A DNA stretch of 64,000 nt from Acidimicrobiaceae bacterium (GCA_030837965.1 JAUTXP010000046.1:38326-102325), one strand, 5' to 3'; numbered from the stretch's first letter, positions 7,052 to 39,111 are shown. Notes: generated from the letters alone by a model not told the origin. Made by a program: numbers and translations.

Positions 7052-7139
7052 GTGACGATGGTGGCACCTGCGTCGGGATTAACCCACCGCGAACCTTCGT
7101 CGGCGGCGTCGCGAACCGCCGGTTCCGTACGGTGACCGT

Positions 7140-9150: not shown

Positions 9151-11804
9151 CGCTGGGCTGGGCGGTCGCGCTCGTGCGGCGACGGCCCGGGCGCGTCTTC
9201 GGGGCCGCCGCCGGTGTCGCCCTGGCCGTCGCCCTCTTGGGCTCGCTCGGCGCTTTTCTCGCGACTGCGAAGAGCCAGATGACCACGCGGGCCGTTCGCC
9301 AGGTGCCCGTGGACTGGCAGGTAGAGGTGCAGCAGGGAGCGTCGAACGCCGATGTTGCCGGCGCCATCGCCCGCAGGCCCGGAGTCCGCGCATCCGTGTC
9401 GGTTGGCTACGGGCCTACGACTGGGATGGTCGCGACTACCGGCGGAACCACCCAGACCACCGGCCCTGGTGTCGTCCTCGGCTTGCCCGAGGGCTACCGC
9501 GCCTGGTTTCCGCAGGAGATCCGGACGCTCGTGGGCCGCGGCGATGGCGTCCTGCTCGCCCAGCAGGCCGCGGCCAATCTGCGTGCCCGCCCCGGTGACG
9601 TCGTCAGTGTCGAAGTGCCCGGGCGCGCGCCGGTGAGCGTCACCATCGACGGGGTGGTCGACCTCCCGGCCGCGGACTCGCTGTTCCAGCGGGTCGGGGC
9701 GCCGCCGGGGGCGGGCCCCGAAGCCCCGCCCGACAACGTGCTGCTGCTGCCGAAGGCGCGCTGGGACCAGCTCTATGCCGACGCCGCGTCTCCCGTGCAG
9801 GCGGTTCGCACGCAATTCCACGTCAGGCTGGACCATCACCTGCCTCCGGACCCGTCGGCCGCCTTCTCCCAGGCGGTGAGCGCGGGCCGGAGGCTCGAGG
9901 CCGACCTGGCGGGAAGCGTGCTCGTGGGGAACAACCTGGCCGCCATCCTCGACGCGGCCCGCTCCGACGCCCTCTACGCGCAGGTCCTGTTCATCGGGCT
10001 CGGCCTGCCCGGGTTGTTGCTGGCCGCGCTCCTCACGCGCGCCGTCGCCGGCTCGGGCGGCGCGGCCCGTCGCCGTGAGTTGGCGCTGCTGCGGACCCGC
10101 GGCGCGTCGCGGCCGCAACTGCAAGCGCTGGTGCTGTCCGAGGCGGTGGCCGTTGGGATCATCGGCGCGGTCGGCGGGCTGGCCGGCGCCGCCGCGGTCG
10201 GCCGGGCCGCGTTCGGCTCGTCGCCTTTCGGAGCCGGGCGGCTGGATCTCGGGTGGGCCGCGGTGTCTGCGGCCGCTGGGTTCGCCATCACCGCCGCCGC
10301 GGTCGCGGTACCCGCACAACGCGACGCCTCCACCGTCTCGGTGGCCGACGCCCGACGCGCACTTCGAGACGCGTCCGCGCCCGCCGCTCTGCGGTACGGG
10401 CTCGACGTGATCATGCTGGCCGTGGGCGGCGCCATCGTGTGGGCAACGAGCCGGGCCAGTTACAACTTGGTGGTCGCCCCTGAGGGCGTGCCCACCGTGT
10501 CGGTCGACTACTGGGCCCTCGCCGGCCCGCTGCTGCTCTGGGGTGGCCTCGGCCTGTTTGCCTGGCGTGTCGTGGTGCAATTCGTCGGGCGGGGTCGACG
10601 CGTCCTCGACGGCCTGCTTCGGCCGATGGCGCGAGGGCTGCACGCTCCGGTCGCTGCCACCGTGCACCGGCAGCGCCGTGCCATGGGAGCAGGCGTTGTG
10701 CTCTTGACGCTCACGGTCGCGTTCGCGGTGTCGGCGTCGGTGTTCAACACCACGTACCGCCGCCAGGTCGAGGTCGACGCCATCCTCACGAACGGAGCGG
10801 CGGTGACAGTCGCGGAGGCGCCCGCGGCCCAGGCCGGCCAGGCGAACGCCGCCCGTTTGGCGCAGGTCCCCGGCGTTTCCCGAGTCGAAGCGCTTCAGCA
10901 CCGATTCGCCTACGTGGGCGCCGACCTCCAGGACCTCTACGGCGTGGACCCGACAACCATCGGGCCCGCCGCCCATCTGCAGGACGCGTACTTCTCGGGC
11001 GGGACCGCCCGGCAGCTCCTCAGAGCGCTTTCGCTTCGTCCTGATTCGGTCCTGGTCAGCGCCGAGACTGTGACCGACTTCCAGTTGCGGCCGGGCGACC
11101 GCCTCCGGCTGCGCGTCCGCGACGCCCGGTCGGGCCAGCTCGTCGACGTCGACTTCCACTACGCGGGCATCGTCAAGGAGTTCCCGACCGCGCCCACCGA
11201 CAGCTTCCTCGTCGCCAACGCGCGCTACTTGGCCGAACGCACCGGTGACCCGTCTGTGTCGACGTTCCTGCTGTCCACCGCCGCGGGCGCCCGTCCCCGC
11301 GCCGTGGCCCGCGACGTGCGCAGGGCGGCGGGCAGCGACGCCACCGTCACCGACATCGAGGAGAGCCGCCGGGTCGTGGGCTCCAGCCTCACCGCGGTGG
11401 ACCTCAACGGATTGACCAAGGTCGAGCTCGGCTACGCCCTCTTGCTCGCCGTCGCCTCAACCGGCCTGGTGCTCGCGCTCGGCTTCGCCCAGCGTCGACG
11501 CGCCTTCGCCATTCTGGCCGCGCTCGGCGCCAAGCGGCACCAGATCGCGGTGTTCGCCAGTGCCGAGGCGGCCGTGTTCGCCGTGCTCGGAGCCGTTCTC
11601 GGCGTGGCCGGGGGATGGGTCCTCGCCGAGGTGCTGGTCAAGGTCCTCACTGGCGTCTTCGACCCGCCGCCCGCCAAGCTGGCCGTCCCGGGGGCGTACC
11701 TGCTCGGGTTCGCGGCGTGCGCCGCAGGTGGTGTTGTCGCCGCGGTCTGGATGCAGATCCATTCCCTGCGGCGGCCATTGATCGAGATGGTTCGAGACCT
11801 GTGA
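9144..11804 (+). CDS. FtsX/MacB-type ABC transporter permease (double FtsX module, about 886 aa)
   Basis: GTG at 9144 is in frame. An N-terminal TM is followed by a large extracytoplasmic region and two 4-TM FtsX-like blocks. Confidence 0.75.
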   Translation: MVALGWAVALVRRRPGRVFGAAAGVALAVALLGSLGAFLATAKSQMTTRAVRQVPVDWQVEVQQGASNADVAGAIARRPGVRASVSVGYGPTTGMVATTGGTTQTTGPGVVLGLPEGYRAWFPQEIRTLVGRGDGVLLAQQAAANLRARPGDVVSVEVPGRAPVSVTIDGVVDLPAADSLFQRVGAPPGAGPEAPPDNVLLLPKARWDQLYADAASPVQAVRTQFHVRLDHHLPPDPSAAFSQAVSAGRRLEADLAGSVLVGNNLAAILDAARSDALYAQVLFIGLGLPGLLLAALLTRAVAGSGGAARRRELALLRTRGASRPQLQALVLSEAVAVGIIGAVGGLAGAAAVGRAAFGSSPFGAGRLDLGWAAVSAAAGFAITAAAVAVPAQRDASTVSVADARRALRDASAPAALRYGLDVIMLAVGGAIVWATSRASYNLVVAPEGVPTVSVDYWALAGPLLLWGGLGLFAWRVVVQFVGRGRRVLDGLLRPMARGLHAPVAATVHRQRRAMGAGVVLLTLTVAFAVSASVFNTTYRRQVEVDAILTNGAAVTVAEAPAAQAGQANAARLAQVPGVSRVEALQHRFAYVGADLQDLYGVDPTTIGPAAHLQDAYFSGGTARQLLRALSLRPDSVLVSAETVTDFQLRPGDRLRLRVRDARSGQLVDVDFHYAGIVKEFPTAPTDSFLVANARYLAERTGDPSVSTFLLSTAAGARPRAVARDVRRAAGSDATVTDIEESRRVVGSSLTAVDLNGLTKVELGYALLLAVASTGLVLALGFAQRRRAFAILAALGAKRHQIAVFASAEAAVFAVLGAVLGVAGGWVLAEVLVKVLTGVFDPPPAKLAVPGAYLLGFAACAAGGVVAAVWMQIHSLRRPLIEMVRDL

Positions 11805-12589
11805 CCCCCACCCGGCGGCAGTTCCTCGTGGCCGTGCCCGCCCTCGTGCTGGCCGCGTGCACGGCGGCGCGGCGGGCCACGCGCGGTGCGGCCCGGCCGA
11901 CGACGACCTCCGTCACGGACCGGTCTTCGACGGGGCCGGCCCCCTCGCCGGCGACCTCGGCGCCGTTGCCCGGGAACGCCCGCGCGACGCTGCCCGCGTT
12001 CGTGGCGAACGGGTCGCGGGACCGCCCGATCGTCGCGTTGACCTTCCATGGGTCGGGTGACGTGGCGTTGCTCGACCGGCTGCTCGCGGTGGCGGCGACG
12101 CACCGTGCGCCGTTGACGATCTTCGCCGTCGGCCAGTGGCTCGACGCCAACCCGGCGATCGCGCGACGGGTACTCGACGCCGGGCACGAACTCGCCAACC
12201 ACACGTACACCCACCCTGCGCTGGGGCGCGTCGGAGCCGACGCGGCACGGCGTGAAGTCCAGCAGTGCCGAGACGCGCTCATCCGCCACGCGGCCGGGCC
12301 TGGCAAGTGGTTCCGGCCGAGCGGCGTCGAGGTCCCGAGCGCAACGATCCTGGCCGCGGCCGCCGCGGCGGGGTACTCGACGGTGGTGGGGTACGACGTC
12401 GACCCCCGCGACTACCAGGACCCCGGGGCGGCCGTCGTGCGCGCTCGCGTCGCGGCCGGCGTCCGGCCTGGCGCCATCGTCAGCCTCCACACCGGCCACC
12501 TCGGCACGGTGGACGCGCTGCCCGGCATCCTCGACGATCTGGACGCGAGGGGGCTGCGCCCGGTCACCGTCTCCGGGCTGCTGCTATGA
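11801..12589 (+). CDS. Polysaccharide deacetylase (CE4 / NodB-like) lipoprotein
   Basis: 'TFHGSG', 'ELANHTYTHP' and 'RPSG' NodB motifs. 'RRQFL...LAAC' is a Tat/lipobox-like N-terminus. GTGA overlap. Confidence 0.8.
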   Translation: MTPTRRQFLVAVPALVLAACTAARRATRGAARPTTTSVTDRSSTGPAPSPATSAPLPGNARATLPAFVANGSRDRPIVALTFHGSGDVALLDRLLAVAATHRAPLTIFAVGQWLDANPAIARRVLDAGHELANHTYTHPALGRVGADAARREVQQCRDALIRHAAGPGKWFRPSGVEVPSATILAAAAAAGYSTVVGYDVDPRDYQDPGAAVVRARVAAGVRPGAIVSLHTGHLGTVDALPGILDDLDARGLRPVTVSGLLL

Positions 12590-13758
12590 GGTCGGGGGTC
12601 CGGGCAATTGTGTTGGCGACGACACTGTCTTCGGCCGCGCTCGGCCTCGCCGGATGCGCGAAGTCGAACGCGCACCGGGCACCGAGCGCCGCCCGTCGTG
12701 GCGACGCCGCAGCCACCACCACCACGACCGTGCCGGCCCCGACCACGGGTGCGCCCACGGCGGGCGCGGCGGACGGCGCTGGGGTCTACGCCCACACCGG
12801 GGCGGGCGACGTGGCCGAGTCCGTCAGAGGCGACCGCCCTCTGGTGTACGTGCCCAACAGCGAGTCGGCGACGGTCGACGTCATCGACCCCACCACCTTT
12901 GCCGTCGTCGACCACTTCGCCGTCGGGCGACTGCCCCAGCACGTGACGCCGTCGTGGGACATGCGAGTGCTCTACGTCGACAACGACGAGGGCAACTCGC
13001 TGACTCCAATCGATCCCCGCACAGGGCGGCCTGGCGCACCTGTGCCCGTCGAAGACCCGTACAACCTGTACTTCTCGCCGGACGGCACGAAGGCCATCGT
13101 GGTGGCCGAGCGCCTACGCCGCCTCGACATCCGCGACCCTCACACGTGGCGCGTCATCGACAGCATCCCGGTGCCCTGCTCTGGGGTCGACCACGCTGAC
13201 TTCACGGCCGACGGCACGGCCATGGTCGCCAGTTGCGAGTTCTCAGGCGACCTCGTCCGAATCGACCTGGCCACCAACTCCGTGTCCGGAACGCTGCACG
13301 TTGGCGGCCAGCCCGTCGACGTGAAGCTCGGGCCCGACGGCTCCGTCTTCTATGTGGCCAACCAGAAGCGCAACGGCGTGTCCGTGATCGACGCGGCGAC
13401 GCTCAGCGAGCGGGGCTTCATCCCTACCGGCGCCGGCGCCCACGGGCTCTACCCGAGCCGCGATGCCCGCTGGCTCTACGTCACCAACCGCATCGGCGGA
13501 AGCGTGTCCGTCCTCGACTTCGCCACCGGAGCCGTCCACGACACCTGGGCCGTCGGCGGCAGCCCGGACATGGGAGGCGTCAGCGCCGACGGGACCCAAC
13601 TTTGGCTGTCGGGCCGCTACGACAGGGCGGTCTATGTCATCGACACCCGCACGGGCGGGCTCGTGCACACGATCGCTGTCGGCGCCGGGCCGCACGGTCT
13701 GTGCGTGTGGCCTCAGCCGGGCCGATACAGCCTCGGCCATACCGGGAACACGCGCTGA
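12586..13758 (+). CDS. YVTN-family beta-propeller repeat lipoprotein
   Basis: Lipobox 'LGLAGC' and repeated 'YV.N....VSVID' blades. ATGA overlap with the deacetylase. Confidence 0.75.
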   Translation: MRSGVRAIVLATTLSSAALGLAGCAKSNAHRAPSAARRGDAAATTTTTVPAPTTGAPTAGAADGAGVYAHTGAGDVAESVRGDRPLVYVPNSESATVDVIDPTTFAVVDHFAVGRLPQHVTPSWDMRVLYVDNDEGNSLTPIDPRTGRPGAPVPVEDPYNLYFSPDGTKAIVVAERLRRLDIRDPHTWRVIDSIPVPCSGVDHADFTADGTAMVASCEFSGDLVRIDLATNSVSGTLHVGGQPVDVKLGPDGSVFYVANQKRNGVSVIDAATLSERGFIPTGAGAHGLYPSRDARWLYVTNRIGGSVSVLDFATGAVHDTWAVGGSPDMGGVSADGTQLWLSGRYDRAVYVIDTRTGGLVHTIAVGAGPHGLCVWPQPGRYSLGHTGNTR

Positions 13759-13921
13759 CGCCCGCTCCGTAGACCCGTGGGCCCCGGCGGCGCGTCGCCG
13801 AGATCAACAGGCCGGAACGACTTGTCATTCGGCGTGCCGGCGGTCAGCTCATTCGGCGGGCCGTTGTCGATCGGCTGACCGAAACCACCTCAAACTTCGA
13901 GAAGTTCGGCGGGTCTGCGGG

Positions 13922-13974
13922 TAGTGCGCCCCTTGGGATTCGAACCCAGAACCTGCGGATGAAGAGTCCGTTGC
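13922..13974 (-). repeat. Orphan 3' half of tRNA-Lys (anticodon arm to 3' end); att-like direct repeat of 39109-39161
   Basis: 51 of 53 nt are identical to the intact tRNA-Lys 3' part. The 5' side cannot form an acceptor stem or D-arm, and one mismatch puts a pyrimidine at anticodon-loop position 37. Confidence 0.85.
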
Positions 13975-14246
13975 CGGCCGTCTACCGAGATCGCTGCAGG
14001 TCGCTGACCTGCAGTTGCGTCCCGAGCAACGTCCATGTGGTCCATCGAGAGAGCAGGTGTATCACGCCGATACGCGCCTGGATACGCGCCCGCGAACCGA
14101 CGTGAGTTCCGACCGGTGCTCGGCGTGCATGTGAACGACACGCGCCACCGAGACGGCGCGGCCACGGCGGCATTGAATGCACGGGCGCCATCAGCCTGTT
14201 GCAGGGGCGAGTCTGCGGAGGGCGCACACGGCACCAAATCGAAACC

Positions 14247-14873
14247 CTAGATCGCGACTCGCTCTGGGCCGCGGCCCGCGAAGGCACGGACGAAGCGGCG
14301 GATCTGACCGACGTCTACGGAGTCGCAGAGGAGCCGGCGGCCCCAAGCTGTCACCGCAATCCTGGCGGTCATCCCGGGGCGCGCTACTGCGATGATCCCG
14401 CGCTCCTGTCTTGCCAAGGCGCGCAGCTCCTCGACGGCGGAGTCGCCCGGGCTGTACCAGACCACGACAAATCCGTGCTCCATGGCGTGGACCAGCTCTC
14501 CGTCAGAGGGCGTCGCGGCGGGCTCTTTGAAACCAGGCGACGCCGGCCGTGCCGAGTGCGGTCCGCCGCTTGGGGGATCGACCGTGTACCGCGGCGACTC
14601 GACGTGCGTCCGGCCGGGGTCAGTTCTCCTGTCGTAGCTGCACCGGTCGCCGACGATCTCGTCGACGTCCACGCCGCGGCGCGCCTCTGCCCGATCTGTC
14701 GAATAAGCGAAGAGCGCCCCCCACCCGGCGAGCCCGACCGCGGCCACCGCCAAGAGACGCCTGAACAGGCGGCCGGCGCGCTGTACCCGCTCCTCGGGCG
14801 ATGGGAGGTCGTGGATGGAGCCGCCCCAACCGGAGGGGCTCTCGTTGCCCTGCGTAGGATCGGCTGATGCCAC
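14247..14873 (-). CDS. DUF3105-like membrane-anchored protein
   Basis: A single N-terminal TM segment and an 'AMEHGFVVVWYSP' motif. Confidence 0.6.
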   Translation of the reverse strand: MASADPTQGNESPSGWGGSIHDLPSPEERVQRAGRLFRRLLAVAAVGLAGWGALFAYSTDRAEARRGVDVDEIVGDRCSYDRRTDPGRTHVESPRYTVDPPSGGPHSARPASPGFKEPAATPSDGELVHAMEHGFVVVWYSPGDSAVEELRALARQERGIIAVARPGMTARIAVTAWGRRLLCDSVDVGQIRRFVRAFAGRGPERVAI

Positions 14874-15025
14874 AGCGAGGCATCGTAGATTTGTTCCGCA
14901 GGCGCGCCGCCCGCCCCGGGCTGTCCGGGGACGCGCTCGGTGCCCCGCTCAAGGCGAGGCGCGGGGGGGACGGCCGACGGGCACTCTTCGACGCGCTCCG
15001 CCTGGTGTCGCGAGCGGCAGCAGAG

Positions 15026-17158
15026 ATGCGCGGCGGGGCCAGGGTACCGTTCGTGGCGCAGACCGAGCTCGCCGACTGCGCGGCCGCTTCGCTGGCCATG
15101 GCCGCATTGGCCCAGGGCGTCGACCTCGACCTGGCTGGCGCCAAGCGGGTGCTGCCGCCGGGGCGGGGCGGGACGAGCGCCCGTGCGATCCTGGACGCGG
15201 CGCGGCTCGTCGGGCTGAGGGGCCGGGCCGTCAGGGCCGAGCTCGAGGATCTCCGCCACGTGCCCGTCGGCAGCGTCCTGCACTGGGACTTCAATCACTT
15301 CGTCGTCCTGCAGTCCGTCCGGCGCGACGGCGTCGTCGTGGTCGACCCGGCGCTGGGCCGACGGCTGGTCGACTGGGCGGCCGTCGACCGGTCGTTCACC
15401 GGGGTGGCGCTGGTCTTTGAGCCCGGCGAGGGCGGCGGGGCTCCGTCCGGCGGTCAATCCCGCGACCTGCGGTGGTCGTTCGTCAGATCCGTGCTGCGCC
15501 ACCGCTCTGCGTGGGCCCGGGTCGTCGCGGTGTCGGTGGCCCTTCAGGCGCTCGTGCTGCTCGTGCCGCTGGCATCAGCCTTCATGATCGACCGGGTCGT
15601 CCCCTTTGACGACGCCGACCTGCTCCGGAAGCTCGTCGCGGCAGGCGCGGCCGTCGCAGTGGGTCTCTTCCTGCTGTCGGCGGCGCGCTCGCTCGCACTG
15701 GCGTCGCTGCGCGCCCTGGTGGATGCCCGCCTGTCGGCCGACGTGCTGGAGCATCTGCTCGCGCTCCCGTACCCCTACTTCCAGACGCGCTCTGCAGGCG
15801 ACCTGCTGCTCCGGGTTCGGAGCGGCGCGGCGATCCGCCAGATCGTCACGACGGGCCTGCTCTCGAGCATCCTCGACGGGTGGGTCCTCGTCCTGTCGTT
15901 CGCCGCGCTCCTCCGAGTGGACCCCTTCCTCGCCATGCTCGTCGTCGGCGCGGCGGCGCTCCAGGTCGGGGTGGTGGCGCTGGCGTGGCCCACGCTGCGC
16001 GACCTAGCCCGGGCGGGAATGGAGGCGCAGAGCCGGACGCAGAACAACCTCGTGCAGGCGCTGGCTGGGATCGAGACGATCAAGGCCTCGGGGGGGGAGG
16101 CCCAGGCGTTCGAGCGATGGAGCGCCGTCTTCGTCGACGAGCTCAACCTTGACCTGGAGCGGGCGAGGGTAGGGGCGGTGGTCGAGTCGCTGCTGTCGGC
16201 TCTGCGATTCGCGGCGCCGTTCGCCGTGCTGTCGACGGCGATGTTCCAGGTGCTCGACCGCTCGCTGTCCGTCGGGTCCGCGGTGGCGGCCGGGATGCTC
16301 GCGGGCAACACCCTGGCGCCGGTGGCCTCCCTGCTGGGGAGCGGCGTGGCGCTCTCGGCGCTCGCCGGGTACTCCGCCCGCCTCGCCGACCTGCTGGGAG
16401 AGCCCCGAGAGGACGAGGGCCAGGGCGGCCGCCGCCTAGAGGGTTACCGCGGGGGCGTCGAGCTGGCGGGGGCGGAGTTCGCGTACCCGGGATCGCAGGC
16501 CCCGGCGCTGAGCGGCGCGAGCGTGCTCGTCGAGCCCTGCTCTTTCGTGGCCGTGGTGGGCCCGTCCGGCGCCGGCAAGTCGACGCTGGCGATGCTCGCC
16601 GCAGGGCTCCTGCGGCCCACGGCCGGCGAGGTCCTCTACGACGGCGTGCCCCGCTCGGAGCTCGACCTGTCCTCGCTCCGCCGCCGGATCGGGATCGTGA
16701 CCCAGAGGGCGTTCCTGTTCTCCGGGACCGTCCGGGAGAACCTGGCGCTGTGGGGCGCCGGCATCGACGACGAGCGAGTCGAGGAGGCGGCGAGGCTGGC
16801 GCGCATCCACGACGACGTCGAGGCGATGCCGCTCGGGTACGAGACGCGGCTGAGCGACGCCGCCGGGAACATCTCGGGCGGCCAGCGCCAGCGGCTCGCG
16901 ATCGCGCGGGCGCTCGTCAACCGGCCCGCGCTGGTGGTCCTCGACGAGGCCACCAGCGCGGTCGACGCCGCGATGGAGGCGCAGATCATCGACGACTTGA
17001 GGCGGCAGGCCTTCACGCTCGTGGTCGTCACCCACCGCCTGGACACGGTCAGCGGCGCCGACGCCGTGATCGTGGTCGAGGACGGGTGCGTGACGGCGTG
17101 CGGCCCGTACGACGCGGTCGTCCCGCGGCTGCGCAGCGGCTGGGGCGCTCAGGGGTAG
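15026..17158 (+). CDS. Bacteriocin/RiPP-type ABC exporter with an N-terminal C39 double-glycine peptidase domain
   Basis: C39 residues 'QTELADCAAASLAM' (Cys), 'NHFVVL' (His) and 'VVVDPA' (Asp). Six TM segments. Walker A 'GPSGAGKST', signature 'ISGGQRQRLAIARAL'. The start could instead be 14867. Confidence 0.85.
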   Translation: MRGGARVPFVAQTELADCAAASLAMAALAQGVDLDLAGAKRVLPPGRGGTSARAILDAARLVGLRGRAVRAELEDLRHVPVGSVLHWDFNHFVVLQSVRRDGVVVVDPALGRRLVDWAAVDRSFTGVALVFEPGEGGGAPSGGQSRDLRWSFVRSVLRHRSAWARVVAVSVALQALVLLVPLASAFMIDRVVPFDDADLLRKLVAAGAAVAVGLFLLSAARSLALASLRALVDARLSADVLEHLLALPYPYFQTRSAGDLLLRVRSGAAIRQIVTTGLLSSILDGWVLVLSFAALLRVDPFLAMLVVGAAALQVGVVALAWPTLRDLARAGMEAQSRTQNNLVQALAGIETIKASGGEAQAFERWSAVFVDELNLDLERARVGAVVESLLSALRFAAPFAVLSTAMFQVLDRSLSVGSAVAAGMLAGNTLAPVASLLGSGVALSALAGYSARLADLLGEPREDEGQGGRRLEGYRGGVELAGAEFAYPGSQAPALSGASVLVEPCSFVAVVGPSGAGKSTLAMLAAGLLRPTAGEVLYDGVPRSELDLSSLRRRIGIVTQRAFLFSGTVRENLALWGAGIDDERVEEAARLARIHDDVEAMPLGYETRLSDAAGNISGGQRQRLAIARALVNRPALVVLDEATSAVDAAMEAQIIDDLRRQAFTLVVVTHRLDTVSGADAVIVVEDGCVTACGPYDAVVPRLRSGWGAQG

Positions 17159-19437
17159 AGGGCCCGCAGCGCGAGCCGGTCGACCTTCCCGCTGGGCGTG
17201 CGCGGCAGCGCCTCCACCACATGCAGGCGGCGTGGCGCGTGCGTGACGGGCAAGACATCGCGTGCAGCGCGCAGGACCGACCGCTCCACGCCGGCGGCGT
17301 CCCCCACGGCGCCGACCTCCGCCCACGCGAAGACGCACTCGCCGAGCGTGGGGTGCTCCACCCCGACGGCCGCGGCGTCGATGACGGCGGGGTGCCGGCA
17401 GAGGACCTGCTCCACCTCGCGCGCGTGCACCTTCACGCCGCCCACCTTGATCACCTCCGCGTCCCTGCCGACGAGGAAGAGGAAGCCGTCATCGTCGAGG
17501 TAGCCGAGGTCGCCCGGCTCGGTGTATCCCTCGTGCGCAGATGTCCCGCCGCCGCCCAGTAGCGAGTAGCCGCCAGAGTTGACCGAGACGCGCCCCGCGT
17601 CGCCGGGCGGCAGGACGTCACCGCTTTCGCCGACGATCCGGATCGAGACGCCCGGCGACGCCCGGCCCACGGTCCCCGGCCGGCACAGCCAGTCCCGGGC
17701 GAGCACGAACGTCCCGCTCGCCTCGGCCGCGGCGTAGAACTCGTGGACCACGGGGCCGAGCCACTCGATCATCCGCCTCTTGAGCTCCGGCGGACAGGGG
17801 GTCGCCGCGTGGACGACAGCGGCGAGAGACGACACGTCCCGATGCGGGCCCGCATCGCGTGCGCGGAGGAGGCCCGCCATCATCGAGGGCAGAAGGAACA
17901 TCGACGTCGCCCCGAGGCGCTCGACCAGCTCCAGCGCCCGCTCGGGCGACCACGACCGCATCAGCGCGAGCGACTGCCCGCTGTGTAAGGCCGCGACCGC
18001 CACGCTGCGGAAGGCGCCCCCCGACAGCGGCCCCGTCACGAGGTGCGGGCCCGACGTCGGCATCTCCAGCCACCGCGACAGTGAAGCGTCCGTCAGCGCC
18101 CGCAGCGTGAGGTCGACCTGAGCGGCGTGGCGGCGCACCGCCTTGGGCACGCCGGTCGACCCGGAGCTGAGGGCGACGAGGAAGCCCGCCTGCGTGCGCT
18201 CGTCGACCGGAGCGTCAACAATGTCCGCCGTCAACTCGGCCACCGACGCCTCAGTCAGCCCGGGAACGCGCTGGCCGGCCGCGACCAGGAGTGCGGGCGA
18301 GTGCGCCGACAGAACCTCGCGAAGACGCGGCGGCGGCAGGTCGGTGCCGACGGCGAGGTAGCCGCAGCCGGCGGCGATGGCGCCCAGGTAGGCGACGATG
18401 GCGTCGGCCCCGTTCGGGAGGCAGCTCGCCACGACCGCCCCCGGCCCGAGCCCCCGCGTTCGGAGCGCGAGAGCCATCCTCCACGCCCGCGCCACGAGGT
18501 CACGCCTGGTGAGAACCGCGCCGTCCTCCTCTACGACCGCGAGCTCGTCCCCCGCTCCCGCGGCGAGCCGCCATACGCCGACGCGCCGATGCCGCTCGCC
18601 GGAAGCCGGGGCGGCCAGGCACCGCACGCCAGCGTTTGTATGTGACTCATAGACGACGGGGCCGAACCGCTGCTCGGCCGCCCGCCGCAGCTCGGCCGGG
18701 CACGGCCTGATCCCGACGACCACGGCGGCGAGGCCCGGAGGCGGACCGGCGGGCGCCGCCCCCTCGATGAGCGCGGCGAGGACGTCTGGCACGACGAACA
18801 ACGACACTGCCTCAGGCAGGCCCAGCTCACGGAGGATCTCCTCGCGGCCGAGCTCGGCCGCGAGGACGACGGAGTGGCCCGCGTTCACGGCCCCGAGGGC
18901 CACGCGGAGCGGCTCGGCGTGCCAGAAGGGGACGGCGGCCACGTGGGCGCCACGCGGCGGGAGGTCGTAGCGCGTCAGGAACGACGACGCGAGCGAGGAC
19001 ATCGCAGCGGCGAACGTGGTCGACCCAGGCCCCCCCGGACGCCTCGCCGCCTCCAGCAGCGCGCCGGCCGGCACGGAGCCGGGGACCGGATCTGCGACCA
19101 CCTCGCGAGCGCCGGCGTTCTCCAGCAGCACCGACCAGGGCAGCACGGGGGATCCCAACGCCCAGTCCTCAGCACCGACAGGGCCGCCGCCAAAGACGGC
19201 CACGGGCCGCAGCTGTGTCGCCACGCCCGCCAGCCGGTCTCCGCCCGCTGGGGGCAGGGGCAGGACGGACACGCCGAGCCGCAACGCCGCCGCGGCCACG
19301 GCGATCGCGACGCGCTGCGGCACCCCAGCCAGGACGACGCAGTCGCCCGGCACCGCGCCAAGGCGCCGCAGAGTCGACTCGGCACGTGCCGCATCCCGCT
19401 CGACGTCAGGCAGCTCGAGCCGGTCCGAACCCCCCAT
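17149..19437 (-). CDS. Adenylate-forming (ANL) enzyme with an extra degenerate N-terminal ANL half-domain (762 aa)
   Basis: The C-terminal unit has 'LSSGSTGVPKAV', 'YTEPGDLGYLDDDGFLFLVGRDAEVIKVGGVKV' and 'PRTPSGKVDR'. The N-terminal 330 aa or so look ANL-like, but the P-loop is replaced by 'GPGSTTFAAAMS'. ATG at 19437. Confidence 0.75.
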   Translation of the reverse strand: MGGSDRLELPDVERDAARAESTLRRLGAVPGDCVVLAGVPQRVAIAVAAAALRLGVSVLPLPPAGGDRLAGVATQLRPVAVFGGGPVGAEDWALGSPVLPWSVLLENAGAREVVADPVPGSVPAGALLEAARRPGGPGSTTFAAAMSSLASSFLTRYDLPPRGAHVAAVPFWHAEPLRVALGAVNAGHSVVLAAELGREEILRELGLPEAVSLFVVPDVLAALIEGAAPAGPPPGLAAVVVGIRPCPAELRRAAEQRFGPVVYESHTNAGVRCLAAPASGERHRRVGVWRLAAGAGDELAVVEEDGAVLTRRDLVARAWRMALALRTRGLGPGAVVASCLPNGADAIVAYLGAIAAGCGYLAVGTDLPPPRLREVLSAHSPALLVAAGQRVPGLTEASVAELTADIVDAPVDERTQAGFLVALSSGSTGVPKAVRRHAAQVDLTLRALTDASLSRWLEMPTSGPHLVTGPLSGGAFRSVAVAALHSGQSLALMRSWSPERALELVERLGATSMFLLPSMMAGLLRARDAGPHRDVSSLAAVVHAATPCPPELKRRMIEWLGPVVHEFYAAAEASGTFVLARDWLCRPGTVGRASPGVSIRIVGESGDVLPPGDAGRVSVNSGGYSLLGGGGTSAHEGYTEPGDLGYLDDDGFLFLVGRDAEVIKVGGVKVHAREVEQVLCRHPAVIDAAAVGVEHPTLGECVFAWAEVGAVGDAAGVERSVLRAARDVLPVTHAPRRLHVVEALPRTPSGKVDRLALRALYP

Positions 19438-19514
19438 GCGGACTGAACGTATCGCCCCGCACCCGCGGCGCGCCCATCCGCAGCCGGGCGGACAAAACGG
19501 GTATACACCACAAC

Positions 19515-19529
19515 ACATACCTGGTATGT
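19515..19529. promoter_or_regulatory. 15-bp palindrome ACATACC-T-GGTATGT in the divergent promoter region
   Basis: A perfect 7-bp inverted repeat read directly, lying 48 bp upstream of the peptide gene's ATG. Confidence 0.4.
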
Positions 19530-19576
19530 TTCCCTGCAACACGTCGGCGACCGGCCCGGCGGGAAGGAGCTGGGAG

Positions 19577-19795
19577 ATGAACGAGACCCACGGCCTCGGC
19601 GCCGCCGCGCTCACCGACATCAGCGACGAGCTTCTCGACGCCGTCGTCGGCGGCGGTTCCATCGTCGACCCGGTGCTCTGCCCGATCCTGGGGTCCCTCT
19701 CGCCGGGCGTGCCCGGCGTTGTGGACATCGACCCGACGGGCGACACCTCCATCGCCGGTCAGCCGACCTGGGACTGCGTGCCGTACGACGGCTAA
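19577..19795 (+). CDS. Double-glycine-leader precursor peptide (72 aa), bacteriocin/RiPP-like
   Basis: SD GGAAGGAG lies upstream of the ATG. The leader 'LTDISDELLDAVVGGG' is followed by a 45-aa acidic, Pro-rich core with 2 Cys and no basic residues. Confidence 0.75.
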   Translation: MNETHGLGAAALTDISDELLDAVVGGGSIVDPVLCPILGSLSPGVPGVVDIDPTGDTSIAGQPTWDCVPYDG

Positions 19796-19868
19796 ACGCC
19801 AAGTCCCGTCACCCTCGATCACGCCCAATCGCGCCACGGCCCCTAGCTGTAGTTCCTAGGAACGTTCT

Positions 19869-20100
19869 TCAGCTGTGCTCACCTCTCCAGTAGGTCGCCC
19901 CGTAGGACCACTCGCGCAGCATCGTCTGGATGAACCTGAACCGCCCCGGGTTTTGTGGAGGCTGTTGCTAAGTCTTGGCGGCTGCCAGCGCTGCGGGGCC
20001 ACGAGTTTCCCTCGCCCGCGAGGCCGTGAACCAGTCGGCCTCGAACTCGGCGATCGGCCACGTGCCGCCCGCCGAGTTCGAGGACGAGTGGCTGAGAGGC
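19869..20100. pseudogene. Convergent transposase C-terminal fragments (rve-type)
   Basis: The minus strand reads 'PQNPGRFRFIQTMLREWSYGATYW*' (compare GKAERFIQT..EW), preceded by an in-frame TAG. The plus strand reads 'SAIGHVPPAEFEDEW', an IS3-like C-terminal motif. Confidence 0.55.
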
Positions 20101-21159
20101 ACGGGCAGGGGAGAGACTCGCGTCGGGCGATCACCAGCGTTGGGCAGGCACGTAACAAACAGCCTCCGCCAAACCCGGGGCGGTTCAGTCCGTCAGGGGC
20201 ACGTCTCCCCGGGGCAATTACCCAGGGCGAGCCACGTCCCCGCCGTAATGCTGGCGCTCCCGTCCACGCCCGCTGCGGCCGCCGCGCCGTCGTGAACGAA
20301 CTCCAGGAGCAAATCTCGCCGGGCTCGCTCGGCCAGCGAGCGGCGGACACTGTCGAGCTGGCCTACGAGCACCCGGCAGACGCCGCCTTCGGCCCACGGC
20401 GCGCCGTTCAGCACCAAGGACAGGACGCTGGCTGTGACGCGGATAGGCGCGGTGTGGGCGGCAGCGAGTGGAGGGCGGGCGCTAGCGTCTCGGCCACCTT
20501 CTTCCACATGCTGGCCCGCGTCTCCGACTGGGCTGGGCCCCAGCCGGACAGGCGGATCGTCCGACGGTTCCCGACGCTCTCGGCGACGACCGTTTTTGAT
20601 CGCCGCGGGCCCCAGTCTGCTGCCACCGCACGGTCGCTGTCCTCCGGGGCCTGGCGACGGGCAACGCCGATCAGCCGCGCCAGTTCGGGATGGGGAGCGA
20701 GGAGGACCGGGACAGGGCGCAAGCATCGAGCCACGACGGGTTAGCGCCTCGTCTCGGACGAGCCCGCGCGCGCTGCGGAGGAGGCCCAGCTAAGCACACG
20801 CTGTCCACCTCGGGCCATCGGCCAGCCACGCGCGCCGCCATGGCGCGGCCGCTTGAGCGTCGGCCGTCCCCGGTCTCGGACGGCGACCAGCGCCCAGAGG
20901 CGCCGTACGTCCGTAGGGCCTCCGCGGCCCCATCAGCCGCCCCCGGGGTCGGGCGACGCCAGTGCGCACTAGGCCGTCCGACAATCGGTTCGGGCGCAGG
21001 CCGATAATGCCGATGCGCTCGGCGACGGCCTTCAGGGCGTCCCGTGAATAAGCGTCCTCGGCCCGAAGGCCAGCGCGTCACCTGCCTGCTCACGAGCACC
21101 ACGCTGTTCCCGGACGCGTCGCCTGGCAGTTCGACGAGCTCTAAGGCGTGAGGCATTCC

Positions 21160-21723
21160 TCAGCGGACAGGGGCGGCGTGCACCCCGGCCAGCACGGCGA
21201 GGATGGCCCGGGCGGCGGTCTCGGGCCCCCAGCCAGGGTCGATCACGAGGTTGGGCCGCAACGGCTCCTCGTACGGCGCCGAGACGCCAGTGAACTGTTC
21301 GAGCTCTCCCGAATGGGCCCGCCGGTAGAGTCCCTTCGGGTCGCGGCGGGCGCACTCCTGCACGGGCGTGGCGACGTGGCACTCGATGAACGGCACGCAC
21401 GCGTCGCGGTGCCTGCCGCGCACCAGCGCTCGCGCGTCCCTGTATGGGGAGACGATCGCCACGAGCGCAACAAAGCCCATCCGGGAGACCAACAGTGCGA
21501 CCTCGCCCACCCGGCGGATGTTCTCGCGGCGGTCCTCCGGCGTGAAGCCGAGGTCGGAGTTGAGGCCGTCTCGCAGCTCGTCGGCGTCCAGCCTGCACAC
21601 CGCGACCCCTTGCGAGCGGAGCCCCACCTCGACGGCACGCGCCAGTGTGGACTTGCCTGCCGCAGGCAGGCCCGTGAGCCACACGGTCGCGCCCAGTTGG
21701 TCATCCACGGGCCGGTCCGTCAT
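21160..21723 (-). CDS. cysC: Adenylyl-sulfate (APS) kinase
   Basis: 'VWLTGLPAAGKSTLA' P-loop, 'LDADELR', 'DRRENIRR', and 'PYEEP' near the C-terminus. ATG at 21723. Confidence 0.85.
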   Translation of the reverse strand: MTDRPVDDQLGATVWLTGLPAAGKSTLARAVEVGLRSQGVAVCRLDADELRDGLNSDLGFTPEDRRENIRRVGEVALLVSRMGFVALVAIVSPYRDARALVRGRHRDACVPFIECHVATPVQECARRDPKGLYRRAHSGELEQFTGVSAPYEEPLRPNLVIDPGWGPETAARAILAVLAGVHAAPVR

Positions 21724-22099
21724 GTGCCCGAGCCTTGGCGAGCTTTCCCAACGAATCCGCCCGACAGACGCCACCACGTCGAAGCGCGCCCGCCTGGCAG
21801 TTGGGGCGAGCAGTTCGCGTACGTGCTCGCGCACGCCACGGAGCCCAGCGGTTCGCTCGATGCCGTGCCGCACGGAGCCACCGGCGGCGACCCGTGCCCC
21901 GGGTTCGGGGCAGGCCACACGCGTGAGCGTCGCCTACCGCCCACGCTCGATGGACGGCAGTCGGACACACGTTGAGGCGGCCGAAGACAATCGACTCGTT
22001 CGACCGGGCAACCAGAAAGGTGCTGGGTCTCGTCATCGATTTGGCCGAGGTAGACCGGCTGGAAGCCCGTCCCCGGGACGGCGTCGCGCAACTGAACCT

Positions 22100-22140
<41 letters not shown>

Positions 22141-22249
22141 CCGGCGCCGCGGGCCGGCCGTCGACGTGGACGGCGAACTTGATGGCTCGACCGAGCGGCT
22201 CACGTTTGCCTGCTGGCGCTGCCAACTTCGCTGAGAAAATCAAAGATCC

Positions 22250-23190
22250 GGCGATGCCGCACTACTCGAAGACCGCGCGGCCGAGCCAGGAGCTCACGGG
22301 CAGTTTCACCGGCGCCGCCACACCTCATCGTCCGCCCCCCTTCGGTCCCGATGAAGAGCCAGATAGTAGCGAGGCACGGCTCCGAAGAGCTTGTCGAGAC
22401 CTCGGTCACCCCGATGAAGCCCCGCCGTCGCTGATGCTGGGACTGCTCACGCCAACCTTCGATGCGCCCGACGGCCTCGAACCGTCCCGATTGCCAAGAG
22501 CAATCGGCGTCGTCAGAGTTGTGGTCGGCGACCTCGCGGAGGGGTGTCCAGTATCGCAGGCGGGCCGTTGACGCGCAGCGTGATCCTTCCGCTCTTGTCG
22601 ACGGTGTCGTGTCGCACGCGGTCGCGCCTATCGCTGCGATCACCGGGTGTTGCTTGGGTCGCCAGTGATAGGCGTCGGCAGGGGGTGCATCGATTCGGTA
22701 GCGACCGGTGCGGTCGTTCGTGGTTGCAGTAGACGGCGAAGACGTTGAGGAGGGCTTGCTGCTCGCCGATCGTGTCGGGCTCCCCGGCTCGGGCCGCGAG
22801 CGAGCGCGTGAGGGTCTGGTAGAACCGCTCGACTTTTCCGGCATGTCGTCGGGTGGTTCGGTCTGGAGCTCTTGGGCGATGCCGAGGCGACGCAGCTCGG
22901 CATCGAGGGCGTTGCGGCCGCCCTTGCCGCCGGAGAGGCGGGTGGTGAATGGCATGCCGTGCCAGTCAGCGTCGACGCGGGAGCGCCGTGCTCGGCGATG
23001 GCAGCCCAGAGTTCGTTCAGCACGATCCGCCCGGTGTACGGTGAGCCGCAACGCGTAGCGGGCGTGAGTCGAGCCAGAACAACACCTCGACACCGTTGGC
23101 GAGGGGGTAGTGGACCCGTCATTTGCGACACACCATCCAGCTTCGTCTCTCGCGAGCGTCGTTCCTCAGCATGCGCTCCTTGGCGCTGAC
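22250..23190 (-). pseudogene. IS481-like (rve integrase-core) transposase, frameshifted and 5'-truncated
   Basis: Pieces are spread over three frames: 'HARYALRLTVHR', 'AAIAEHGAPASTLT', 'GMPFTTRLSGGKGGRNALDAELRRLGIAQ', 'SRPNHPTT', 'PADAYHWRPK'. Confidence 0.7.
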
Positions 23191-23351
23191 GCACAAGAGC
23201 CCGGAAAGTGCGCGACCTGAGAACCGTGGCGCGTGGCCAGGGGAGCCATTCGAAGCCGGGCGTCGGGCGCCGCCAATGAGCCCGTAGCAGGTGTCAGCCA
23301 GCCGAGGCGCTTGTGCCCGTCAGCCCGAATGGCTGCGAAAGCGACCTTGCT

Positions 23352-24254: not shown

Positions 24255-24443
24255 CGCTCCTCCAGTGGTGCTCCACTTGACCACATGCGGCGGGATCTCC
24301 CGGCTACTCTACTGGCCGCGCGTGCTTCGCCGGCTGAGGGAGATTGAGCCATCGACAAGCTTGCCTGGGTTCCTTCCGGGGTGCCGTTGCGTTGGCTGCG
24401 GGCAGGCCATGCGTGCCGATCGACTTGCCGCGGGTGAGCGTGC

Positions 24444-30303: not shown

Positions 30304-30335
30304 GGCCGATCGACACTTGGTGAGATGATCGAACG

Positions 30336-32026: not shown

Positions 32027-32047
32027 TCACTGGCCCCCACGAGATCG

Positions 32048-32917: not shown

Positions 32918-32925
32918 CGGTCGCG

Positions 32926-34236: not shown

Positions 34237-34264
34237 CCGAACAGCGTATGGCAAGATCGGCGGC

Positions 34265-35407: not shown

Positions 35408-35410
35408 ACG

Positions 35411-36355: not shown

Positions 36356-36375
36356 GGAGGACGACGTCATGCACG

Positions 36376-36972: not shown

Positions 36973-37003
36973 GGACAGCGGTGACCGCATTGGCGCTACC
37001 GCG

Positions 37004-38713: not shown

Positions 38714-39006
38714 CGCGGCCTGATCCCTCCGCCCGGGCGACGAGCGTGGCCGACTCCTGCGCCAGCCCCGCGTCACGACACCGTTCAAGCACCATGGTCC
38801 ATCGGGCGCGCTGCGGCCGAGTCATCCGCAATTATGGCCATTGCGTGACGGTGCCGGCCGACTTCGTCGTGACGTCGTCGGTACCATGCCGCATTGGCGC
38901 AAGTCCTGCATTGCTCGTCTCCTTCATCGGACCCAACAGGGGTGGATGGAAGGACGGCAGGAACGATGCGGAGGCGTCGACCGCGGTCGGACACTTCGGG
39001 CCGAAA

Positions 39007-39060: not shown

Positions 39061-39111
39061 AGACGATCTGATAGCTCCGGAGAAAGCCCTGCTCCCGGCG
39101 GTGCTGCTTAG

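Follow-up and report, generated by a model that had tools for sequence, protein, structure and literature searches.

Among the closest described systems are the PCAT/AMS double-glycine systems, which include class II bacteriocins, LahT-type lanthipeptides and NHLP/Nif11 peptides. Their precursors combine a conserved leader of the double-glycine (GG) consensus with a variable core that is cationic and amphiphilic, and the C39 domain at the N terminus of their exporters has the Cys, His and Asp residues. The cassette described here shares the leader consensus, the C39 residues and the pairing of conserved leader and variable core, and its exporter is nearest to LahT150 and TIGR03796. It differs from these systems in its anionic core (net charge −3 to −6), which derives from the tail of Sec-secreted proteins; in its partner genes, which encode an ANL enzyme and a DUF3105 protein; and in its conserved block, where neither a HlyD-type accessory gene nor a small immunity gene is evident. 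The combination that marks a class II bacteriocin, a cationic or amphiphilic core together with a dedicated small immunity protein, is not evident in the cassette.

MccE492 and other class IIb (siderophore) microcins likewise pair a GG-leader peptide with PCAT-type export. The C-terminal carboxylate of MccE492 is joined post-translationally to a glucosylated linear trimer of N-(2,3-dihydroxybenzoyl)-L-serine, a type of linkage that can only be hypothesized for the cassette peptide. MccE492 depends on MceC, MceD and MceI/J, whereas the cassette contains none of these families and has an ANL as its enzyme. The hosts also differ, an enterobacterium in the case of MccE492 and an actinobacterium in the case of the cassette.

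Activation of a peptide carboxylate with ATP is known from MccB (ThiF-like), lasso cyclases, AS-like amidation/nitrile synthetases (PesC) and ATP-grasp graspetide ligases. The cassette resembles these enzymes only in the logic proposed below, ATP activation of a carboxylate on a leader-bearing peptide. None of them is an ANL, and Pfam detects no RRE in the cassette ANL. Searches of the literature turned up neither a RiPP class whose peptide is modified by an ANL nor a precedent for an ANL with a ribosomal peptide as carboxylate substrate, in agreement with an earlier note on this DNA that had recognized neither of its proposed modifications as a described RiPP class.

The cassette and its distribution

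The window is a stretch of 64,000 nucleotides from an Acidimicrobiaceae bacterium. Positions 13941–19795 form a discrete four-gene cassette that encodes a DUF3105 protein, a C39-ABC exporter (PCAT), a 762-aa ANL and a 72-aa double-glycine-leader peptide. The features are as follows.

13921–13972, minus strand: near-exact copy of the 3′ half of tRNA-Lys(CTT), from anticodon arm to acceptor end, found by alignment to the intact tRNA-Lys at 39111–39183
14247–14873 (start tentative), minus strand: DUF3105 protein (Pfam PF11303, E 3.9e-22)
14867–17158, plus strand: PCAT, 763 aa, with C39, transmembrane and nucleotide-binding domains in this order (Pfam Peptidase_C39, ABC_membrane, ABC_tran)
17149–19437, minus strand: long ANL, 762 aa (Pfam AMP-binding and AMP-binding_C)
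17149–18567, minus strand: complete catalytic ANL, aa 291–762 (Pfam AMP-binding and AMP-binding_C)
18568–19437, minus strand: pseudo-ANL domain, aa 1–290, an internal duplicate of the ANL large N-domain
19438–19576, no strand: divergent intergenic region between ANL and peptide, 139 bp, holding the peptide Shine-Dalgarno sequence GGAAGGAG
19577–19795, plus strand: peptide ORF, 72 aa, with GGAAGGAG at 19562–19569, 7 nt upstream of the ATG
19577–19654, plus strand: double-glycine leader MNETHGLGAAALTDISDELLDAVVGG, 26 aa
19655–19795, plus strand: 46-aa core GSIVDPVLCPILGSLSPGVPGVVDIDPTGDTSIAGQPTWDCVPYDG and stop codon; two Cys, net charge −6, C-terminal Gly

The elements described in the earlier note (ORF, Shine-Dalgarno sequence, leader, C39 motifs and ANL) are all present at or near the positions it gave. 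The layout is of RiPP type, a precursor of leader and core encoded beside processing genes. In line with the note, the LanM/LanB, YcaO, rSAM, ATP-grasp and lasso families are all absent from the Pfam matches of the four cassette genes. Combined Pfam and NCBIfam scans of the four proteins revealed no known class-defining RiPP maturase (including LanB/C/M/KC and lasso B/C) and no RRE, and Pfam matches to RRE/PqqD-like domains, carrier proteins or acyltransferases are likewise lacking in these genes. The DUF3105 gene is the sole gene of the block without an assigned role.

The extent of the cassette is defined by comparison with another locus, L001. A single blastn block, 13941–19795, is common to the two at 88.6% nucleotide identity, and the flanks are unrelated. 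The block ends exactly at the peptide stop codon on one side and inside the tRNA-Lys fragment, at 13941, on the other. The fragment was not called by ARAGORN or Rfam at 13921–13972. It also adjoins the DUF3105 gene in L001 and stands at the start of L002.

The cassette recurs in at least four further metagenomic loci at 51–88% identity, with different flanks and gene orders. L002 and L017/L018 contain the same four gene families in other orders and other surroundings; the ABC, peptide and ANL genes are colinear in L002. L014, a 587-bp contig, covers the C terminus of the ABC transporter followed by a GG peptide. L017 contains two long ANLs and three peptides, with one ANL located after peptides A and B and the other after peptide C. 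The two ANLs are anciently diverged, with catalytic parts that are 49% identical. Conservation of the peptide gene extends to its leader and neighboring genes in L001, L002, L014 and L017/L018. All five long ANLs found directly adjoin GG-peptide genes, in three different gene orders, a census that is a lower bound with possible exceptions, as the protein search missed both L017 ANLs. This gene-context evidence comes from four or five metagenomic loci, and two of these are closely related. All cassette loci belong to uncultured organisms (actinobacteria), and the cassette is rare. A lack of conserved peptide–ANL–exporter linkage in related genomes was to count against the proposal of the earlier note; the linkage is conserved in L001, L002 and L017, so this objection fails.

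Precursor peptide

The 72-aa ORF at 19577–19795 has the GG leader that the earlier note assigned to it. The leader end ...LTDISDELLDAVVGG fits the double-glycine consensus, with V at −4, L at −7, I at −12 and L at −15, and the leader is conserved in relatives, the sequence L-L-D-x-[VI]-V-G-G being invariant in 7/7 GG-type peptides. Predicted cleavage after Gly26 should give a 46-aa core for export. The core had been described as 45 aa long with eight prolines; cleavage after GG gives 46 residues and the 45-aa string contains seven prolines, and its strongly anionic character and two cysteines were described correctly. The 139-bp intergenic region (19438–19576) shows no consensus for a sigma-70-type promoter or a terminator. 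Pfam and NCBIfam contain no model for the peptide.

Leader and core evolve differently. Between the window and L001, the leader shows one nonsynonymous and three synonymous changes, whereas the core shows 15 nonsynonymous changes and two indels against six synonymous changes. A conserved leader joined to a fast-diverging core is precursor-like evolution. The seven GG-type cores are all anionic, with net charges of −3 to −6; Lys, Arg and His are almost absent, and Lys is absent from every core. The two Cys and a D-C-x-P motif are invariant in all seven, and no Ser or Thr position is conserved among them. The C-terminal residue is Gly or Ala in 7/7 GG-type cores versus 23/114 (20%) Sec-type relatives, a pattern that was spotted post hoc with an n of only 7.

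Relation to Sec-secreted proteins

Rather than being a stand-alone novelty, the core is a homolog of the C-terminal two-Cys disulfide module, about 45 aa in size, in a large actinobacterial family of Sec-secreted proteins. The module family, with the consensus DPxxCPxLAxLAPGVPGVVDIxPxGD..WDCPPY, has 321 representatives in a profile search, 75 of them at E ≤ 1e-10, and is not in Pfam. In an alignment of 150 sequences, C35, G55 and C67 do not vary. The window peptide possesses the two conserved Cys and the WDCPPY-type end. Its anionic, Pro-rich composition is inherited from the module family and is no sign of special chemistry.

Family members are usually composed of a Sec signal peptide and a Cys-containing N-terminal domain of ~130 aa ahead of the module, and some consist of signal peptide and module alone (P0132, P0274 and P0275). 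The window peptide lacks both the signal peptide and the N-terminal domain and has a GG leader instead, a type that accounts for 3 of the best 150 family representatives. In a subset of Sec-type proteins, the helix immediately before the module resembles the GG leader. The precursor therefore looks like a detached tail of a Sec protein that was switched from Sec to PCAT export. No ANL, PCAT or DUF3105 gene lies near the Sec-type relatives in the nine loci examined; since the ANL is missing there, the module can work without it. The AF2 model of the module (pLDDT ~90) is compact and contains one helix and three short strands. This predicted compact fold and the two conserved Cys suggest a plain disulfide mini-protein.

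Exporter and DUF3105 protein

The C39 domain of the PCAT spans approximately residues 60–187 (15044–15427; Pfam PF03412, E 2.4e-21) and can be aligned to LahT150, a double-glycine protease (6mpz, E 8e-21). Conserved are the Gln and Cys in QTELADC (aa 65–71), the His in HWDFNH (aa 139–144) and the Asp in VVDPA (aa 158–162). The earlier assignment of the exporter to 15026–17158 was right about the C39 Cys, His and Asp, as the LahT150 alignment confirms, but probably not about the start: the most likely start is 14867, and the N-terminal sequence MPQRGIVDLFRRRAARP is conserved in L002 as MPNGNIRQLFRDRATRP. The best NCBIfam match of the PCAT is TIGR03796 (NHLP bacteriocin exporter), at 519 bits, below the cut-off. 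The peptide is accompanied by the transporter expected for double-glycine export, an adjacent ABC protein whose N-terminal C39 domain keeps Cys, His and Asp.

The DUF3105 gene (14247–14873, minus strand) lies inside the interval covered by the earlier note and was absent from it. Its product contains a single N-terminal transmembrane helix (aa 35–57), and the positive-inside rule predicts an outward-facing DUF3105 domain. The protein is 84%, 62% and 54% identical to its counterparts in L001, L002 and L017, respectively. Speculatively, this membrane-anchored protein could play an extracellular role in immunity or oxidative folding.

The long ANL enzyme

The 762-aa protein is an ANL, as first reported, with the Pfam AMP-binding and AMP-binding_C domains and all core motifs. 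In it, a complete ANL is preceded by a fused, degenerate second copy of the N-domain; the N- and C-terminal halves share 31% identity over 127 aa (BLASTP, E 1e-12). The 290-aa N-terminal pseudo-ANL domain is an addition to the earlier description. It stops just past an A5-like YE motif. No P-loop/SGSTGxPK motif is present in this domain in the five long ANLs, yet many of its residues are invariant. It diverges faster than the catalytic part (36–50% versus 49–69% identity among long ANLs). AF2 predicts residues 9–105 with confidence and residues 108–290 with low confidence. The architecture of pseudo-domain plus full ANL has been found only at the cassette loci.

The catalytic half is predicted to be competent, as its core ANL motifs are intact: SSGSTGVPK (424–432), HEFYAAAEASGT (565–576), GDLGYLDDDG (642–651), GRDAEVIKVGG (657–667) and PRTPSGKVDR (745–754). 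The A3 P-loop, A5, A7 Asp, A8 hinge and A10 catalytic Lys are all present, and the motifs are invariant in five homologs. The best PDB matches by sequence are BaiB (4lgc, E 9e-41) and McbA (6sq8, E 6e-37), and the best by fold are ShABS (8ppp) and McbA (6sq8), with a Foldseek probability of 1.00 against ANL structures. Like them, the catalytic half is a complete ANL with all core motifs. These nearest relatives use differing acceptors: McbA and ShABS are CoA-independent amide-bond synthetases, whereas BaiB is a bile-acid-CoA ligase. The amide-bond synthetases are only 27–28% identical to the catalytic half (Foldseek), and BaiB is comparably distant. McbA, ShABS and BaiB are single units of ~490–540 aa acting on small molecules, whereas the cassette ANL adds the 290-aa degenerate N-domain and is genetically tied to a ribosomal peptide. 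The best NCBIfam matches are generic acyl-CoA synthetases, and all matches score far below the equivalog cut-offs. Stand-alone relatives of the catalytic half occur in a housekeeping context, beside a PF00144 gene and glgE/glgB, without a peptide.

Possible roles of the ANL

We lean toward a cytoplasmic, pre-export action of the cassette-specific long ANL on the precursor, because the linkage of the ANL and peptide genes is conserved. Against this view stand the Sec-type relatives that lack an ANL nearby, the compact predicted fold of the module, the lack of Pfam matches to RRE/PqqD-like, carrier or acyltransferase domains, and the lack of a precedent in the literature searches. The precursor would be translated with its GG leader, the complete C-terminal ANL would perform an adenylation, and the C39 domain of the PCAT would cut after Gly26 for export of the 46-aa core. 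The conserved but non-catalytic pseudo-ANL domain is a speculative candidate for a docking surface that binds the peptide or its leader. As the leading, though tentative, chemistry, the ANL may adenylate the peptide's own carboxylate, most plausibly that of the C-terminal Gly/Ala after D-C-x-P.

The resulting acyl-adenylate could be captured by a thiol or an amine. Capture by the Cys located 4–5 residues upstream would produce a thiolactone like that of staphylococcal AIPs (AgrD/AgrB). Thiolactone rings of AIPs have this spacing, a Cys 4–5 residues from the C terminus, and the second Cys is so placed in 6/7 GG-type cores, a likeness that serves as a lead only. In AIPs the ring is closed by AgrB, a protease that works via an acyl-enzyme intermediate, and not by adenylation; the cassette has no agr-like gene. 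The amine would come from a small molecule, as in McbA-type amide-bond synthetases. The full combination, in which the pseudo-domain docks the precursor, the C-terminal Gly/Ala is adenylated and a thiolactone or amide conjugate forms before PCAT export, with a leader that arose from the pre-module helix, is doubtful to the same degree as the carboxylate chemistry itself.

The peptide may instead be exported unmodified save for leader removal and one disulfide, as a class II bacteriocin-like peptide or mini-protein, with the ANL serving another role in the cassette (immunity, envelope-lipid remodeling or acyl-CoA formation) and linked to the peptide by block inheritance. This is a serious rival, though less probable than action on the precursor. 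It agrees with the predicted compactness of the module and its two conserved Cys, with the Sec-type relatives, including signal-peptide-plus-module forms, that have no ANL nearby, with the generic acyl-CoA synthetases as best NCBIfam matches, and with the peptide-free housekeeping contexts of the stand-alone relatives. However, it leaves unexplained why the ANL has a unique, conserved extra domain found only in these cassettes, why every long ANL found flanks a peptide gene in three gene orders, and why L017 retains two anciently diverged ANLs, each by its own peptide gene or genes. Alternatively, the product would be a lipidated or acylated ribosomal peptide, with the ANL activating a free fatty or aromatic acid and passing it straight to the core, at a Cys thiol or at the hydroxyl of a Ser or Thr, which we consider rather unlikely. 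The closest ANL relatives do activate large hydrophobic acids, and two of them, McbA and ShABS, need no CoA to join the acid directly to its nucleophile. ANL enzymes natively form thioesters in their second half-reaction, and the two Cys are invariant in 7/7 cores. Against this, Ser/Thr positions vary among the seven cores, and acylation of Cys would compete with the disulfide suggested by the family fold. Known lipidated RiPP pathways use an ACP, GNAT or condensation partner, and Pfam finds none in the cassette. N-acylation, as envisaged in the earlier note, is unlikely because the cores contain no Lys and the N terminus is blocked by the leader until export.

Two further explanations fare worse. 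RaxX is a PCAT-exported sulfated peptide, and the window encodes a sulfotransferase (37004–37957) that could sulfate the Tyr of WDCVPYDG before PCAT export, with PAPS from the APS kinase encoded at 21160–21918; acidic residues flank this Tyr. This is very improbable, as the sulfotransferase lies 17 kb away within an aminocyclitol-like gene cluster, both genes are outside the conserved block, neither is found in the flanks of L001, L002 and L017 (complete only for L002), and one GG-type core, P0131, has Leu in place of the Tyr. The chance that the small ORF is a random frame in GC-rich DNA and the arrangement a coincidence is negligible. High-GC DNA does contain many spurious ORFs and the peptide has no Pfam or NCBIfam model, but protein-level conservation in at least five loci, the conserved leader, the Shine-Dalgarno sequence, membership in a family with 321 representatives and a confident AF2 model of the module all speak against it; the conservation of the peptide refutes it.

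Action of the ANL on the precursor is the reading we prefer. The cassette points to a putative, so far undescribed type of ribosomal-peptide modification. If the ANL does take the ribosomal peptide as its own carboxylate substrate, the pathway would be the first of its kind.

Conservation of the cassette

The cassette consists of four genes, spans 5.9 kb and is self-contained. The host of the window is a high-GC actinobacterium; the peptide and the ANL match proteins of an Acidimicrobiaceae MAG at 100% identity. The genes are arranged as follows:

14247-14873 (-): DUF3105 membrane protein, within the interval described by the earlier note
14867-17158 (+): C39-ABC exporter (PCAT; start probable), with Peptidase_C39, ABC_membrane and ABC_tran domains
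17149-19437 (-): 762-aa ANL enzyme, with AMP-binding and AMP-binding_C domains
19577-19795 (+): 72-aa peptide with a double-glycine leader, GGAAGGAG 7 nt before the ATG

Alignment of the window with L001, a locus from a JGI metagenome, by blastn reveals a single shared block (window 13941-19795, 88.6% nucleotide identity). One edge of the block lies exactly at the stop codon of the peptide gene and the other inside a 3′ fragment of tRNA-Lys. The flanks are unrelated between the two loci. The ANL of L001 is 87% identical to that of the window. Another locus, L002, carries the genes in the order DUF3105, ABC, peptide and ANL, has different flanking genes and encodes an ANL of 51% identity. L017/L018 is composed of DUF3105, ABC, an 806-aa long ANL, three GG-leader peptides and another long ANL, of 781 aa. 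Divergence between this pair of L017 enzymes is ancient, their catalytic parts being 49% identical, and each has a peptide gene or genes of its own beside it. In addition, the 587-bp contig L014 contains the C-terminus of an ABC protein followed by another GG peptide.

The linkage of peptide, ANL and exporter put forward in the earlier note recurs in other loci, with all four gene families of the cassette in L001, L002 and L017/L018. All five long ANLs found lie beside GG-peptide genes, in three different gene orders; this number is a minimum and there may be exceptions, because the word-indexed protein search missed the ANLs of L017. The cassette loci are all metagenomic, and about four independent lineages are known. 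A metagenome scan with a GG-peptide profile returned two Sec-type relatives only and no further cassette. A genome scan found only Sec-type arrays of Frankiaceae and one match in Clostridia (L009), which is spurious. A tblastn search of PLSDB plasmids with the N-terminal part of the ANL gave no match.

Precursor peptide

The peptide ORF is present as the earlier note had described it, with a textbook GG leader and an upstream SD sequence; the 45-aa string credited there with eight prolines contains seven. The seven GG-type cores are 26 to 48 aa long; in the L017 cores most of the central hairpin has been lost. Every core possesses exactly two cysteines, a net charge of -3 to -6 and an invariant D-C-x-P motif. 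The last residue is Gly or Ala in 7/7 cores, as opposed to 23/114 (20%) Sec-type relatives, and six of the seven have their second cysteine 4-5 residues from the C-terminus. This C-terminal pattern was noticed after the fact and is therefore only a lead.

The leader has barely changed between the window and L001 (one nonsynonymous and three synonymous changes), whereas the core changes fast (15 nonsynonymous changes and two indels versus six synonymous changes). A frozen leader and a fast-changing core are typical of bacteriocin and RiPP precursors. The DIDPTGDT segment was considered as a candidate calcium-binding motif, comparable to the DxDG of calcium-dependent lipopeptides. In the L017 cores it has decayed or been deleted, and it is therefore not the feature that links the peptides to the ANL. 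A promoter and terminator scan around the peptide gene found nothing. A perfect 12-bp palindrome, GTTCCTAGGAAC, is located at window 19852-19863, 57 bp past the peptide stop and just outside the block shared with L001.

The core module in Sec-secreted proteins

Judged by profile matches, the peptide core is not an orphan but a member of a family of Sec-secreted modules. When 1.84 billion representatives (50% clustering) were searched exhaustively with a profile, the module was detected in 321 proteins, 75 of them at E<=1e-10, with the consensus DPxxCPxLAxLAPGVPGVVDIxPxGD(T/V)xVxGxxxWDCPPY. About 140 of the best 150 are proteins of 170-270 aa that begin with a classical Sec signal peptide, continue with a Cys-containing N-terminal domain and carry the module at their extreme C-terminus. 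Among the same 150, some contain two modules, a few consist of a signal peptide and the module alone (P0132, P0274 and P0275), and only three have a GG leader. Pfam contains no model for the family. The AF2 model of the module is compact, with one helix and three short strands (pLDDT ~90), and a PDB fold search with it gave no match.

Frankiaceae MAGs contain tandem arrays of Sec-type genes with up to five paralogues. No ANL, PCAT or DUF3105 gene is found near the Sec-type genes in the nine loci inspected (L004, L005 at 8101-11581, L006-L008, L015, L016, L019 and L020). In L019, a short Sec-type member (8001-8297) sits inside a pentose-phosphate operon, where opcA lies on one side of it, the 6-phosphogluconolactonase gene lies on the other and start and stop codons overlap. 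This is an odd site for a secreted peptide.

The helix preceding the module resembles the GG leader in some Sec-type members. That of P0135, EIVDLLDAVVEATRIVDP, closely resembles the leader of the window peptide, ISDELLDAVVGGGSIVDP; the best cases (P0135, P0254 and the Sec-type locus L015) are colinear and striking. An HMM of the seven leaders shows a weak enrichment on Sec-type segments, reaching >=5 bits in 4/123 versus 1/615 shuffles and 0/123 controls. It is plausible from this resemblance that the GG leader derives from the pre-module helix of Sec-type proteins.

The long ANL enzyme

The 762-aa ANL-superfamily enzyme reported in the earlier note is indeed encoded at 17149-19437 (-). Residues 291-762 form a complete ANL, in which the P-loop and the A5, A7, A8 and A10 motifs are invariant in five homologues. 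Residues 1-290 duplicate, within the same protein, the large N-domain of ANL (31% identity over 127 aa, E 1e-12). This pseudo-domain has lost the P-loop and ends just past an A5-like YE motif, and therefore cannot adenylate. Many of its residues are nonetheless invariant across homologues. It evolves faster than the catalytic part, with identities of 36-50% versus 49-69%. In the AF2 model of the window ANL, the catalytic part and residues 9-105 are confident, and residues 108-290 are poor.

The nearest characterised enzymes by sequence are BaiB (4lgc), followed by McbA (6sq8/6h1b; PDB 6SQ8 is McbA) and ShABS (8ppp/8pyx/8pyy). The top matches by fold are ShABS and McbA. These two are amide-bond synthetases that couple an acyl-adenylate directly to an amine, CoA-free. 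The next closest natural proteins are stand-alone enzymes of ~476 aa, which correspond to the catalytic half only and are 35-38% identical. Where their neighbours were checked, no peptide gene was present and the contexts were housekeeping (a PF00144 gene, glgE/glgB). Such relatives in L010 (3407-6105), L011, L012 (6739-9434) and L013 are annotated as 'bile acid-CoA ligase'. They consistently form a conserved divergent pair with a PF00144 β-lactamase-fold gene, and the pairs adjoin glgE/glgB/treS-mak glycogen genes in Frankiaceae-like genomes.

Exporter and DUF3105 protein

The C39 domain of the exporter aligns with the double-glycine protease LahT150, and the catalytic Cys, His and Asp are in place, in agreement with the earlier note. 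The gene itself is also as described there; its start was placed at 15026 and is probably at 14867, because the N-terminus is conserved in L002. The DUF3105 protein is predicted to face outward. A role in immunity or oxidative folding is speculation. One paper notes DUF3105 proteins in BGCs, themselves uncharacterised, for cyclopeptide RiPPs that contain Avi(Me)Cys.

Surroundings of the cassette

Two tRNA-Lys(CTT) sequences lie 25 kb apart in the window:

13921-13972 (-): copy of the 3′ half of tRNA-Lys(CTT), a near-exact direct repeat adjoining the cassette
39111-39183 (-): intact tRNA-Lys(CTT)

A repeat of this kind is the classic mark of a genomic island integrated at a tRNA gene, here from ~13.9 to 39.2 kb. 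No integrase was found among the ORFs scanned in this putative island, and the ORF nearest the tRNA encodes a methyltransferase. Decayed copies of the tRNA-Lys fragment flank DUF3105 in L001 and L002, not in L017. ARAGORN detects no tRNA adjoining the cassette in the window, L001 or L002, the 3′ fragment being visible by alignment. Rfam at the gathering threshold detects no RNA family in window 12000-24000. The stretch that separates the tRNA fragment from the end of the DUF3105 gene has a perfect hairpin, CTGCAGGTC-GCT-GACCTGCAG, as well as a GCGCGTATCC(n)GGCGCGTA motif (window 13994-14014). Both are kept in the distant L002 (about 65-85) at ~73% nucleotide identity and could be a terminator or a mobile-element site.

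An aminocyclitol/aminoglycoside-like gene cluster lies beside the cassette at 21160-38788. It encodes an APS kinase, a sulfotransferase, a methyltransferase, an aldo-keto reductase, a DegT aminotransferase, an APH phosphotransferase, an AadA-like nucleotidyltransferase and a PF00144 β-lactamase-fold protein. The GC content is 0.66-0.68 from ~22 kb onward versus 0.72-0.74 in the cassette. The cluster is not shared with the flanks of the other cassette loci; L001 has sugar/inositol genes of its own, which are different. RaxX-like tyrosine sulfation was rejected because the sulfotransferase and APS kinase, which belong to this cluster, do not travel with the cassette.

Upstream of the conserved block, window 7190-13758 encodes two ABC ATPases, a 900-aa FtsX-type permease, a polysaccharide deacetylase and a YncE-like β-propeller; these genes are unrelated to the cassette in other loci. 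In L002, an APH-family phosphotransferase, a type II thioesterase and a JmjC/cupin hydroxylase are encoded downstream of the ANL on the opposite strand (6106-9148). They are not found beside other cassettes and may be tailoring genes specific to this lineage or an unrelated cluster.

Possible action of the ANL on the peptide

The PCAT would cut the precursor after the GG and export the core. The gene linkage tilts us slightly towards a long ANL that acts on the precursor in the cytoplasm, with the precursor perhaps docking through the pseudo-domain. Our leading guess as to the chemistry, an unlikely one taken by itself, is that the C-terminal Gly/Ala carboxylate of the peptide would be adenylated and then captured either by an amine, as in McbA, or by the nearby Cys to close an AIP-like thiolactone. 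In the alternative, slightly less probable, the ANL would load an exogenous acyl group onto Cys, Ser or Thr of the core. N-acylation, suggested in the earlier note, is unlikely: the N-terminus is blocked by the leader, and none of the seven cores contains Lys.

The main rival, somewhat improbable in our estimate, holds that the peptide is exported as an unmodified, disulfide-bonded mini-protein and that the ANL has another role in the cassette. The hundreds of Sec-exported relatives, which are ANL-free, favour this rival. Three features of the ANL count against it: its architecture is specific to the cassette, it is strictly adjacent to the peptide genes, and it is co-duplicated with them.

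Comparison with known systems and significance

The export logic is the same as in other PCAT/GG-leader systems, and the cassette, by its gene content, clearly encodes a PCAT-exported leader peptide. Lasso cyclases and ATP-grasp ligases perform the same kind of ATP-dependent carboxylate activation as that considered for the ANL. In class IIb microcins, MceI/J attach a siderophore moiety to the carboxylate of the C-terminal Ser, a precedent for C-terminal modification of a GG-leader peptide, which in the cassette is a hypothesis only. ATP-dependent activation of peptide carboxylates in RiPPs is also carried out by ThiF-like and asparagine-synthetase-like enzymes, such as the nitrile synthetase PesC. 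A literature search returned no case of an ANL activating a peptide carboxylate in a RiPP.

If the ANL acts on the peptide, the RiPP maturases would gain a new enzyme superfamily, and a new ATP-dependent route to activate and ligate peptide carboxylates would be added. Such activation matters for biocatalysis, since engineering for amide synthesis is already under way with McbA and ShABS, the nearest relatives. The status of the cassette as a new RiPP class awaits chemistry, with action on the peptide carboxylate as a candidate; because the cassette is small and self-contained, heterologous expression can test the question directly. The analysis also delimits a large family of secreted actinobacterial proteins that lacks annotation, and the cassette illustrates in a specific case how the tail of an ordinary secreted protein may become a leader-dependent precursor peptide.
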